Virus record (IMG/VR): IMGVR_UViG_2734482775_000002
Location: 1 to 39,804 of that record
Reading direction: 5' to 3' (one strand)
DNA length: 39,804 bases
From: a virus
Taxonomy: Duplodnaviria > Heunggongvirae > Uroviricota > Caudoviricetes
The position numbers were made by a program. Of this stretch, positions 30,001 to 33,000 are shown in pieces; position 1 is the first letter of the stretch; every line of letters starts with the position of its first letter.

Positions 30001-33000
30001 CAGCGCTTCCTGCGCCGCCAGTAATGCACGGCGTTCCAGGGTATCGAAGATGCAGAGTCGGTGACGCAGCTCGCGCGGAAGAATTGCCAGAACCGCAGGG
30101 ATCAGTTTCTGAATTTTTTCCCTTTGCGCTTTCGTTTCACCTTTCAACCAACGGTGATAGATATTCTGCTGATTGTTCCAGTCCTTGCCTGGTACCAGGG
30201 GCAATTCGCCGCCCCCCTGGCGCAGATATTCTTCAGTAATTGCGTTAGCGACCCACGCCTGCCCTTTTTCGGCTGCCAGGGCTAACAACACTGATTCGAT
30301 GTGCTCATGCCTGATTTTCATGAATCAACCGCTCCTATGCTGTTTTCGCTATGCTTACCGTCTGGGGGGAATACATCGTCAAGTCCACAATGAGCGCCAA
30401 GCCGATTAAGGGTAGAAACAATTTTTCTGCACTCCTCTAGTCCTGGGGTACGAAAATTTGCTTCGTAATTTGCCAGTCGGCTTTGTATCCACCCTAACTG
30501 AACAGCAAGTTGTCTTTGAGACAGCCCAAGCTGTTTTCGATATGTTGAAATTTTGTTCATTAAAAACCTCCGATGACAATTTTAAACACACCTTGTGTTA
30601 TATGGTCAAGCTATTTTGTGTTTTATGTAAATCACGATTCGTGATACAAGGATGCAATGGAAAAAGAAAACGAAAAAATTGCCGCTAGTAGGCTCAATGA
30701 CAAAATTGCAATGCGTCTTAAAGAGCGCAGGCAGAAGCTTGGTTTATCTCAAGGAAAACTTGCTGAAATCTGCGGATGGACGCAATCGCGTATAGGTAAC
30801 TATGAGGCGGGCAGCAGAAATGTTGGAGTGCATGACGCTGTCGTATTGGGAAAGGCACTTGGCATATCTCCTCCTGAGCTCCTCTTTGGAGAACAGGAAT
30901 CTTCTGAATTGTGGTTAAATGAATCCCAACGAAAACTTCTTGAGTTGTTTAACCAGCTACCGGGCTCAGAACAACAACGAATGATTGAGCTATTTGAAGT
31001 CCGGCTAAAAGAAATCGATGAGTATGTAGAAAAATATTTGAGAGGCAGGCTTAAAGATAATCCCCCACCGGAGTAATGATCTTGCTATCACAGTAATATG
31101 CCAATCAGCCCGCTGTCAGCGGGCTTTTTTGTACCATCATCATATGACACCCACCATAAAACACATTTCGTGTTGACATAAGAAAACACATTGTGTTTAA
31201 TAAGCATATCCAAACAACGCCCCACCAGAGAACGGCAGGACAATACCTCGAGTTATCCAGCCACTGAACAGGGCTAAGTAGCCAGCCTGAGGCATACGAA
31301 CATGACGGCAGTTGTTGATTGATACAAAGCGCAGTAGATAAAACGTTCCGCCACCCGGCGTTAAGGGGAAAAAAGATGGTTGGTGAAGATCTGGTTGTTA
31401 TTAACGGTCAATTGTGCAGCAAAGATGTGGCAGCCATGCTTATTAGCAAGGTTCTTCCAACTGTGCTGGAGGTCATTGCAGAAAAAGTAAAGGCTGGTCG
31501 TCCAGACAAGGAAGTTGAAGAGGCGGCAAAAACAGTTGTTCATGCCGCTACAGAAGCAATTATTTTGAAGAGCCAAGTTTCGCCCAAGCCTTAAGTGAAT
31601 CGGCGCTTTTTTTAGCATCACGTTCATTGAGTAGTGACAAAAACTCATTCTCAGCATTCTCGATTTCCGAGAAAAATTCTTGATGAGTTGTTTCTCGCTG
31701 CGATCTGATGCTGAAAGCTAAAGCAAGTAGCCAGGCTTTGTCTTTATTATCCATAGGAATACCTTATTACTGGTTGTGTGAGAACTCCAGTATACCACCG
31801 AGCCTGAAGTGGTAAAAAGACAGGCGCACAACACGAAGGCGCATTTCCGGTATTCATAAAGAGCCGGTCTTGTCTGTTAAATTTAAATGGTGGGAGTGCG
31901 CCTCCGGTTGTAAATAACGACATTGCTGTGTGTAGTCTTTGGCGACATCAGTTCTACTCCGTGGCTGCCCTGCCGCCCCTTTTTAAAGTGAATTTTGTGA
32001 TGCGGTGAATGCGGCTAAGCGCACGCGGCACAGTTAAAAGCATCAGTGTTATGGGTGGATTATCCGGCGTTAATTGTTAACTGGTTAACGTCACCTGGAG
32101 GCACCAGGCACCGCATCGACAAAATTCATTTGTAAAAATGGAGATAATTATGATTGCTCATCACTTCGGAACTGATGAAATACCACGTCAGTGTGTGACC
32201 CCTGGCGATTATGTTCTTCATGAAGGTCGGACATATATCGCCTCGGCAAACAATATTAAAAAGCGAAAACTTTATATTCGTAGCCTGACTACAAAAACAT
32301 GCATTTCTGACTGCATGATTAAAGTCTTCCTCGGTCGTGATGGTTTACCTGTAAAGGCGGAGTCATGGTAATGGCTAAGAAAATAAAATGTGCTTATCAC
32401 CTTTGCAATAAAGAAATTGAAGAAAGCAAAATCATTACAAGACCACTTCATTTCATGCGTGGAGTTATACCAACGACGGAAATGAAAAAATATTGTAGTG
32501 AAATCTGTGCCGAAAAAGACCAGATGGCACACGAACTTTAATTAACTGACTATCCGAAACTGAATTTATGCCAGCAATGGCAGGGATTCGCTCAACCTTA
32601 ATTAAGGAGAAAAACATGATTACCAGTTATGAAGCCACTGTTGTTACTACTGATGACATTGTTCACGAAGTCAGCCTGGAAGGAAAGCGTATTGGCTACG
32701 TGATTAAGACAGAAAATAAAGAAACCCCATTCACTGTGGTTGATATCGACGGTCCATCAGGCAACGTTAAAACACTTAACGATGGTGTTAAAAAAATGTG
32801 TCTGGTGCACATAGGAAAGAATCTGCCCGCAGAAAAAAAAGCCGAATTTCTGGCAACTCTGATTGCAATGAAATTAAAAGGTGAAATCTGAAAAAAAGAA
32901 AGCCTGCACACTGTGCAGGCCTGAGTGAAGAACCAGGGACATTTATTCATCACTCGCAGTAATTTTAATCTGAGTTGAGGTTAAAAAACAATGAGCACCG

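Follow-up and report, generated by a model that had tools for sequence, protein, structure and literature searches.

What reads the repeated palindromes at the early control regions of an Escherichia coli lambdoid prophage, and are they the operators of its repressor? The DNA that raises this question is IMG/VR record IMGVR_UViG_2734482775_000002, a stretch of 39,804 nt (hereafter, the window) that is an E. coli lambdoid prophage of the Rac/Qin type and whose motifs we read directly from the sequence. In it, a 96-bp intergenic gap separates a leftward cro-like gene (30318-30560, minus strand; 80 amino acids [aa], HTH_3 fold, recognition helix IQSRLANYE) from a rightward repressor gene (30657-31076, plus strand; 139 aa), whose product has an HTH_3 N-terminal domain with recognition helix TQSRIGNYE and a DicA-like C-terminal helical domain. 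As the original prediction had proposed, the palindromes in this gap and beyond the repressor gene are very probably operators of the 139-aa DicA-family repressor, predicted to silence both early promoters. The same dyad-symmetric site is repeated at the rightward/maintenance and leftward promoters, where it overlaps promoter hexamers, and the operators co-vary with the repressor gene among heteroimmune relatives; a phylogenetic footprint, a module swap and a weight matrix built from relatives all agree with this assignment.

Two sites carry the full motif. OR1 (30585-30599; centre 30592, -65 from the repressor ATG) reads AACAC-ACCTT-GTGTT, or AACACA-CCT-TGTGTT, and is the perfect AACACA-N3-TGTGTT palindrome that the original prediction had placed between the cro-like and repressor genes. 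OL2 (31160-31174; centre 31167) lies where a second copy had been described and overlaps the -35 hexamer of the pL-like promoter, to which it is fused (GTGTTGACA), but base 31169 is C and the site reads AACACA-TTT-CGTGTT rather than ending in TGTGTT; written as AACAC-N5-GTGTT (AACAC-ATTTC-GTGTT), it is perfect. The best site formula is AACACR-N3-YGTGTT and, because the inner R/Y positions are kept in all copies, the earlier 6-N3-6 description is right in a degenerate sense. OL1 (31183-31197; AAAAC-ACATT-GTGTT, centre 31190) is probably a 15-bp site, which contains the 13-bp palindrome AACACA-T-TGTGTT, found as previously reported at 31185-31197. Upstream of the repressor gene, a perfect palindrome that we call the OR3-equivalent (30631-30645; ATCAC-GATTC-GTGAT, or ATCACG-ATT-CGTGAT) is centred at 30638, -19 from the ATG, and a degenerate site missing from the earlier list, the putative OR2 (30608-30622; AAGCT-ATTTT-GTGTT), is centred at 30615, -42 from the ATG. 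The three OR centres are thus spaced in 23-bp steps, and all three OR sites lie in the intergenic gap. No OL3 was found by eye 20-24 bp upstream of OL2, nor does one occur among the top matrix scores.

These sites are laid over the two early promoters. The predicted pR-like promoter of the cro-like operon (30581-30609, minus strand) has a -35 hexamer TTGACC (30609-30604), a 17-base spacer and a -10 hexamer TTTAAA (30586-30581), with a predicted start near 30574; OR1 overlaps its spacer and -10, and OR2 overlaps its -35. Within this promoter, GTCAA and TTAAACAC are invariant in 7 relatives, and both hexamers are unchanged in strain APEC O1. The predicted pL-like promoter (31173-31201, plus strand), which is the positional analogue of dicBp in prophage Qin, has TTGACA at 31173-31178, a 17-base spacer and TTTAAT at 31196-31201, with a predicted start near 31208, and OL1 lies across its spacer and -10. 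The TTGACA-N17-TTTAAT sequence that had been described here as a consensus promoter is present and its -35 is consensus, but its -10 has T in place of the usual A at the second position. A separate plus-strand candidate across OR1, ATGACA-N17-TGTTAT, was dropped, both of its hexamers being altered in APEC O1.

The full motif is far more frequent than chance predicts: AACAC-N5-GTGTT matches the window twice against a chance expectation of 0.02, and 0 of 100 shuffles gave two matches. When one mismatch is allowed, the sole extra match in 39.8 kb is 31183-31197, at pL, and all matches at this threshold (3/3) lie within one or other control region. For the bare core CAC-N5-GTG the window shows no enrichment (8 matches versus 9.2 expected); the signal resides in the full arms and their placement. 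This lack of enrichment would suit the alternative that the repeats are chance matches, or the shared sequence of a duplicated promoter with no operator function; moreover, the pR-like and pL-like promoters share a layout in which the right arm GTGTT abuts the -10, and promoter constraint could explain some of the conservation. We regard this alternative as highly improbable, given the chance expectation above and the pattern of conservation: both arms are kept, also outside the promoter hexamers, while the centres vary, and the arms change symmetrically between immunity types (AACAC/GTGTT, GACAC/GTGTC, CTCAC/GTGAG), as predicted for a dimeric reader and not for a promoter.

The footprint comes from eight loci that share the recognition helix [TA]QSRIGNYE: the window, APEC O1, Citrobacter phage Chris1, C. 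youngae, C. braakii, Dryocola, Raoultella and our locus L014. The repressors of Chris1, the two Citrobacter, Dryocola, Raoultella and L014 are 59-66% identical to that of the window. The OR1 arms AACAC/GTGTT occur at the same positions in 8/8 loci, the sole exception being one Raoultella arm (GTGCT), while the central five bases differ nearly everywhere (ACCTT, ATCTT, ATAAT, ACAAT, AAAAT, GCGTC, ATATC, AATTT). Likewise, AACAC-N5-GTGTT is fused to the pL -35 in every helix-sharing relative from which the pL region was recovered. The putative OR2 is unchanged in APEC O1, and at its offset two relatives carry clear sites, AACAC-ATAAC-GTTTT (L012) and AACAC-TATAC-GGGTT (L014). Between APEC O1 and the window there are 16 differences in 171 nt of control DNA and 0 in 50 arm positions (hypergeometric P = 0.003, a somewhat optimistic value because the arm set and the 15-bp OL1 register were defined after the data had been seen); a pair of pPE4-type loci, introduced below, is likewise free of arm changes.

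A weight matrix built solely from the relatives' sites was used to scan the 39,790 positions of the window. It ranked OL2 first, OR1 second and OL1 (31183-31197) third, with OR3 at rank 9 and OR2 at rank 18. The sixth-best match, AAAAC-TTCTT-GAGTT at 30932-30946 (9.5 bits), lies inside the repressor gene and is probably a chance match, being coding sequence with no equivalent seen by eye in Chris1.

The register of OL1 bears on how the dimer would sit at pL. The original prediction had treated the 13-bp palindrome as the operator; the sequence is there, and it is perfect, with a centre (31191) 13 nt past the -35, exactly as in lambda OL1. That it is the real OL1, a compressed site, is possible but doubtful. 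Spacing shorter by 2 bp would rotate the half-sites by ~70 degrees relative to each other, whereas the dimer uses N5 elsewhere. In APEC O1, whose repressor has an identical DNA-binding domain, a C to A change at 31189 breaks the 13-bp palindrome and is neutral in the 15-bp register, and sites in Chris1 (AACAC-ATTTG-GGGTT) and the Citrobacter loci are N5-spaced in that same register. For these reasons the 15-bp register, AAAAC-ACATT-GTGTT, is the more likely one.

The ATCACG palindrome had been described as a different element from the AACACA sites. It is present at 30631-30645, but its predicted role is that of the OR3-equivalent, a variant operator rather than a separate system, because it shares the geometry and the CAC-N5-GTG core, occupies the position of lambda OR3 and ranks ninth in the matrix scan. 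An unrelated site for a different protein, outside the operator set, would explain why the second arm position differs from AACAC, why the site scores 8.9 bits versus 15.6-21.9 for the main sites, and why ATCACG-N3-CGTGAT occurs as a single copy, with no second one in the window. We consider this unlikely: the palindrome has the same 5-N5-5 layout, its distances to OR2 and OR1 are exactly 23 and 46 bp, and all relatives but one have a CAC-N5-GTG palindrome (AACAC-N5-GTGGT or GCCAC-N5-GTGGT) with its centre at -19 or -20.

This variant operator also overlaps the proposed promoter of the repressor gene itself. We infer a pRM-like extended -10 at 30642-30650 (plus strand; TG-A-TACAAG), which would start a leaderless repressor mRNA at 30657. 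Its register is the same as that of lambda TAGATT-N6-ATG, and relatives hold TGGTAAAAT or TGGTAATAT at the corresponding position. Where TGGTAAAAT occurs, it is formed by the right arm of OR3, as an extended -10 placed for a leaderless repressor mRNA.

Which regulator these palindromes belong to is addressed by a natural module swap. Left of the cro start codon, phage vB_Apl-pPE4 (PP818812.1; locus L001) shares 99.8% DNA identity with the window, and rightward from ~31204 the two are identical again; in between, the phage has diverged, and its repressor is only 62.5% identical. At the positions of the window's sites it carries TTCAC-ATTTC-GTGAG (OR1), TTCAC-ACATC-GTGAT (OR3), CTCAC-ATATT-GAGTT (OL2, on the -35) and CTCAC-GATAT-GTGAG (OL1). 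The cro-like protein is 100% identical in the window, pPE4, APEC O1 and strain Z1323CEC0002, and ydaT, the next gene of the cro operon, falls inside the 99.8% identical flank. Sites and repressor have thus changed while cro-like protein and YdaT have not, which indicates that the palindromes go with the repressor gene, not with the cro-like gene or ydaT. The cro-like protein is RefSeq WP_001033914.1 in the APEC O1 and Z1323CEC0002 records, with copies at L001 3069-3311 and L029 101-343. We also note that PP818812.1 was submitted as a phage of Actinobacillus pleuropneumoniae, yet long stretches of it match E. coli prophage DNA at 99.8% identity, and its host assignment looks doubtful.

A third group of loci extends this comparison. 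In pAEv1818, Pectobacterium and Enterobacter, where the helix is T-A-S-R-V-G-N-Y-E, sites of the type GACAC-N5-GTGTC (or GTGAC) are found at both OR and OL. The first recognition-helix residue is Gln in the window group, Ala in the pAEv1818 group and Ser in pPE4, and the outermost operator base is A, G and C (T in some copies), respectively. The joint change of these two positions across the three groups suggests a recognition code. In the lambda and 434 co-crystal structures, the Gln that opens the recognition helix contacts the outermost adenine of the half-site. A further allele of this locus (L007/L008; E. coli EC15, HBUT-L) encodes another repressor, and its OR and OL carry AAGTACAT-type repeats, which resemble those around the HK022 pL promoter (L028 6320-6380: AAAGTACAT, AATGTACT).

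These comparisons also bear on whether the palindromes serve chiefly or solely the cro-like protein, or another phage regulator, with the repressor acting elsewhere. The recognition helices of the repressor (TQSRIGNYE) and the cro-like protein (IQSRLANYE) are nearly alike and both begin with Gln-Ser, as do the helices of lambda cI (QSGVG) and lambda Cro (QSAIN); furthermore, OR3, the most perfect palindrome, departs from the AACAC consensus, and Cro prefers OR3 in lambda. Yet in pPE4 and Z1323CEC0002 every palindrome has changed with the repressor gene, despite the unchanged cro-like protein and the near-identical ydaT DNA, and the outer operator base tracks the repressor's own first helix residue across three groups. 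We therefore judge it very unlikely that the cro-like protein or another regulator is the principal reader.

The repressor being the favoured reader, the role of the shared cro-like protein needs an account. The window type occurs in ~152 complete E. coli genomes (of 5,426), and the identical cro-like protein is also paired with pPE4-type repressor and operators in 10 genomes as well as in phage vB_Apl-pPE4. In most E. coli genomes the homology break lies at the cro/ydaT junction, which implies that cro normally travels with the immunity module. One explanation, which we consider rather unlikely, is that the repressor alone sets immunity specificity, the cro-like protein recognizing no more than the common CAC-N5-GTG core, or mainly [AT]TCAC...GTGAT at OR3; alternatively, strict matching between Cro and operator may be dispensable.

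Several observations weigh against the assignment of the palindromes to the repressor. One and the same cro-like protein occurs with two different operator sets, OR2 matches just 7/10 arm bases, and both the arm definition and the OL1 register behind the P value given above were chosen post hoc. In addition, the -10 hexamers TTTAAT and TTTAAA lack the usual A at position 2, and a generic promoter scanner called neither the pR-like nor the pL-like promoter because it requires that A. Such -10 hexamers can work with a consensus -35, as in the E. coli trp promoter (TTAACT).

From these data we propose a model of the switch. A repressor dimer would read 5'-AACACR-N3-YGTGTT-3' as a pair of half-sites, each with a CAC, separated by one helical turn. 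As in lambda, and as for DicA and PaaR2, occupancy of OR1/OR2 and OL1/OL2 would exclude RNA polymerase from both early promoters, silencing the cro-ydaT-replication operon on one side and the DicF-kil-recE/recT-xis-int operon on the other. By the same reasoning, OR3, lying over the repressor's own promoter, may confer negative autoregulation, and OR2, at -42, might activate that promoter. The cro-like protein, whose helix (QSR..NYE) is nearly the same as the repressor's and which for this reason probably reads the same sites, would be expected to use them in another order or with another preference. Induction would probably proceed through an antirepressor, as with DicA and Rem, since the repressor is without a self-cleavage domain; the candidate gene lies at 21603-22214.

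In the repressor, Pfam HTH_3 matches residues 21-75 (E 4.7e-13), and no peptidase S24 match was found by Pfam in the 139 aa. Aligned with K-12 DicA by BLASTP, the repressor is 29% identical over 129 residues (E 2e-15); the alignment spans the two domains and takes in the C-terminal LFxxLPxSEQ helical region, and phage records annotate close homologues of the repressor as DicA. A sequence search of the PDB returned matches for the HTH domain only (the SaPI Stl 'Orf20', C.AhdI, 434, lambda and P22 repressors), and none for the C-terminal domain. The window has no LexA box of the form CTGT-N8-ACAG, and hence no sign of direct SOS control. The antirepressor gene (21603-22214) belongs to phrog_2379 (E 4.6e-93) and lies behind a C4/isrK RNA module; reading along the minus strand between 23291 and 21603, a Q-like antiterminator gene (22485-23291) comes first, next the C4 antisense RNA with its a1/b1 targets and isrK (22267-22465), and last the antirepressor gene. 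This P1-immI/IsrK-like module is a candidate inducer of the non-cleavable repressor.

The gene order around the control regions is that of the DicA family, with a divergent cro-like gene upstream and a downstream promoter driving a DicF-containing operon. On the plus strand, the repressor gene is followed by an intrinsic terminator (31107-31125, also given as 31107-31131), the TTGACA promoter, a small open reading frame (ORF), the DicF small RNA (sRNA) gene (31927-31978; Rfam RF00039, 53.8 bits versus a gathering score of 48), kil, recE, recT, RalA RNA, xis and int. Further Rfam matches above the gathering score are the RalA antitoxin RNA (37458-37636), a sok RNA (24638-24787) and, just past int, the pair of host sRNAs SraC/RyeA-SdsR/RyeB (39198-39342), which marks the prophage-host junction. 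On the minus strand, the cro-like gene is followed by a YdaT-family, CII-like gene (29899-30321; Pfam PF06254; phrog_163, CII-like activator), then by a 262-aa ORF in the position of a replication initiator, for which no Pfam match was found, and by a DnaC/IstB-like loader.

Two further readers of the palindromes were considered and set aside. YdaT was rejected, its box TTGATT-N6-AATCAA not being at the operators, and for a CRP-type arrangement (TGTGA-N6-TCACA) the half-site orientation here, judged by eye, is reversed. The best YdaT match is instead an inverted repeat exactly at the cro/ydaT junction, CTGATT-TTCATG-AATCAA (30311-30328), one mismatch from the YdaT site, with a second, weaker YdaT-like repeat at 29885-29902. 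In prophage CP-933P, the YdaT-bound OM site near the PRE-like promoter is also at the equivalent of the cro/ydaT junction (PMC9986795).

Just after pL there is a noncoding leader of ~100 nt (GTCATCAAGGCAGGACGCCCACGAAGTAGCTGCCGGCGGCATACGAAACACCGGATGAGATGAC...GCGCAGCAGGT..AACGTTCCGCCAGCCTGGCG) that is 80-95% conserved across genera and across immunity types. We found it at 31205-31375 in the window, where the copy is diverged with blocks kept, at L002 2034-2150 and in L003, L004, L012, L016-L021 and L025, and it is partly matched in ST64B, SfV, SfII, mEp237 and SPN3UB. The leader matched no Rfam family and showed no similarity to the HK022 putL region; it folds with an ordinary energy, and its covariation is slight. 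It may act in cis, in antitermination or in processing.

A literature search for the exact operator sequences found no paper, and the sites define a new immunity specificity in the well-known DicA/lambdoid framework. The result provides a predicted operator map, AACACR-N3-YGTGTT, for an immunity type present in ~150/5,426 complete E. coli genomes, O157, O145 and APEC strains among them; there, these operators would govern DicF, Kil, RecE/RecT and the induction of the prophage. The three specificity groups, which differ mainly in the outermost base and the first helix residue, make a small natural series in which to study changes of HTH specificity. The general picture of lambdoid switches is unchanged by this result, the window being an ordinary example of the classic lambda layout.

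Among known systems, Qin of E. coli K-12 has the cro-like gene, repressor, terminator and promoter of a DicF-containing operon in the same order, operators at both promoters and a repressor, DicA, of which the window's repressor is a full-length homologue. DicA represses dicBp and has operators at dicCp and dicBp; its repression is lifted by the antirepressor Rem, not by cleavage (PMC10448788). The two systems differ in that the DicA operators are of the type GTTAG-N6-CTAAC, in the recognition helix, and in DicC, which is not similar to the window's cro-like protein. The short, non-cleavable repressors GfoR/GfhR of the Salmonella Gifsy prophages, cited as being inactivated by antirepressors, are likened here by description only.

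In CP-933P of E. coli O157:H7, footprinting has placed PaaR2 and the Cro-like YdaS on overlapping sites in the region between two divergent promoters, and both repress the PL-like promoter (PMC8630535). There, PL933P carries related operators, the repressor mRNA is leaderless, and YdaT is the CII equivalent and binds the ydaS/ydaT junction. In contrast to the window, the CP-933P operators are 18-bp repeats with half-site consensus GTTTAGTAA, and the PaaR2 operon has a toxin-antitoxin pair that is absent from the window.

Compared with lambda, the window's repressor has 139 aa and a DicA-type C-terminal domain instead of a RecA-dependent self-cleavage domain, and its similarity to cI is limited to the HTH (E 0.002); the window also differs in having two OL sites found, a YdaT-family protein as CII analogue and no identified N-like gene. 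The arrangement of sites, however, is closely lambda-like. In both phages, the gap between the divergent genes for repressor and Cro contains three 17-bp-type sites. Counted from the repressor ATG, their centres are at -19/-42/-65 (lambda -19/-42/-66 from the cI ATG). Away from the start codon, the order is 10 nt, a first 17-mer, 6 nt, a second 17-mer, 6 nt (lambda, 7 nt) and a third 17-mer, so that the two regions are colinear nearly to the base. At both the rightward and leftward promoters O1 lies in the spacer/-10 and O2 is fused to the -35 (GTGTTGAC), and lambda pR/OR2 and pL/OL2 show the same operator--35 fusion as OL2 of the window, where GTGTTGACATAA at pL is identical to lambda pL. The similarity extends to the sites themselves: lambda OR2 (TAACACCGTGCGTGTTG) is an AACAC-N5-GTGTT site that matches the 17-mer of window OR1 at 12/17 positions, the 17-mer of window OR3, whose half-sites are TATCAC and AATCAC, begins TATCAC as does lambda OR3, and the half-sites AACAC and ATCAC are common to the two phages. 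With such shared half-sites, cross-recognition between the window's operators and lambda-immunity repressors or Cro is conceivable.

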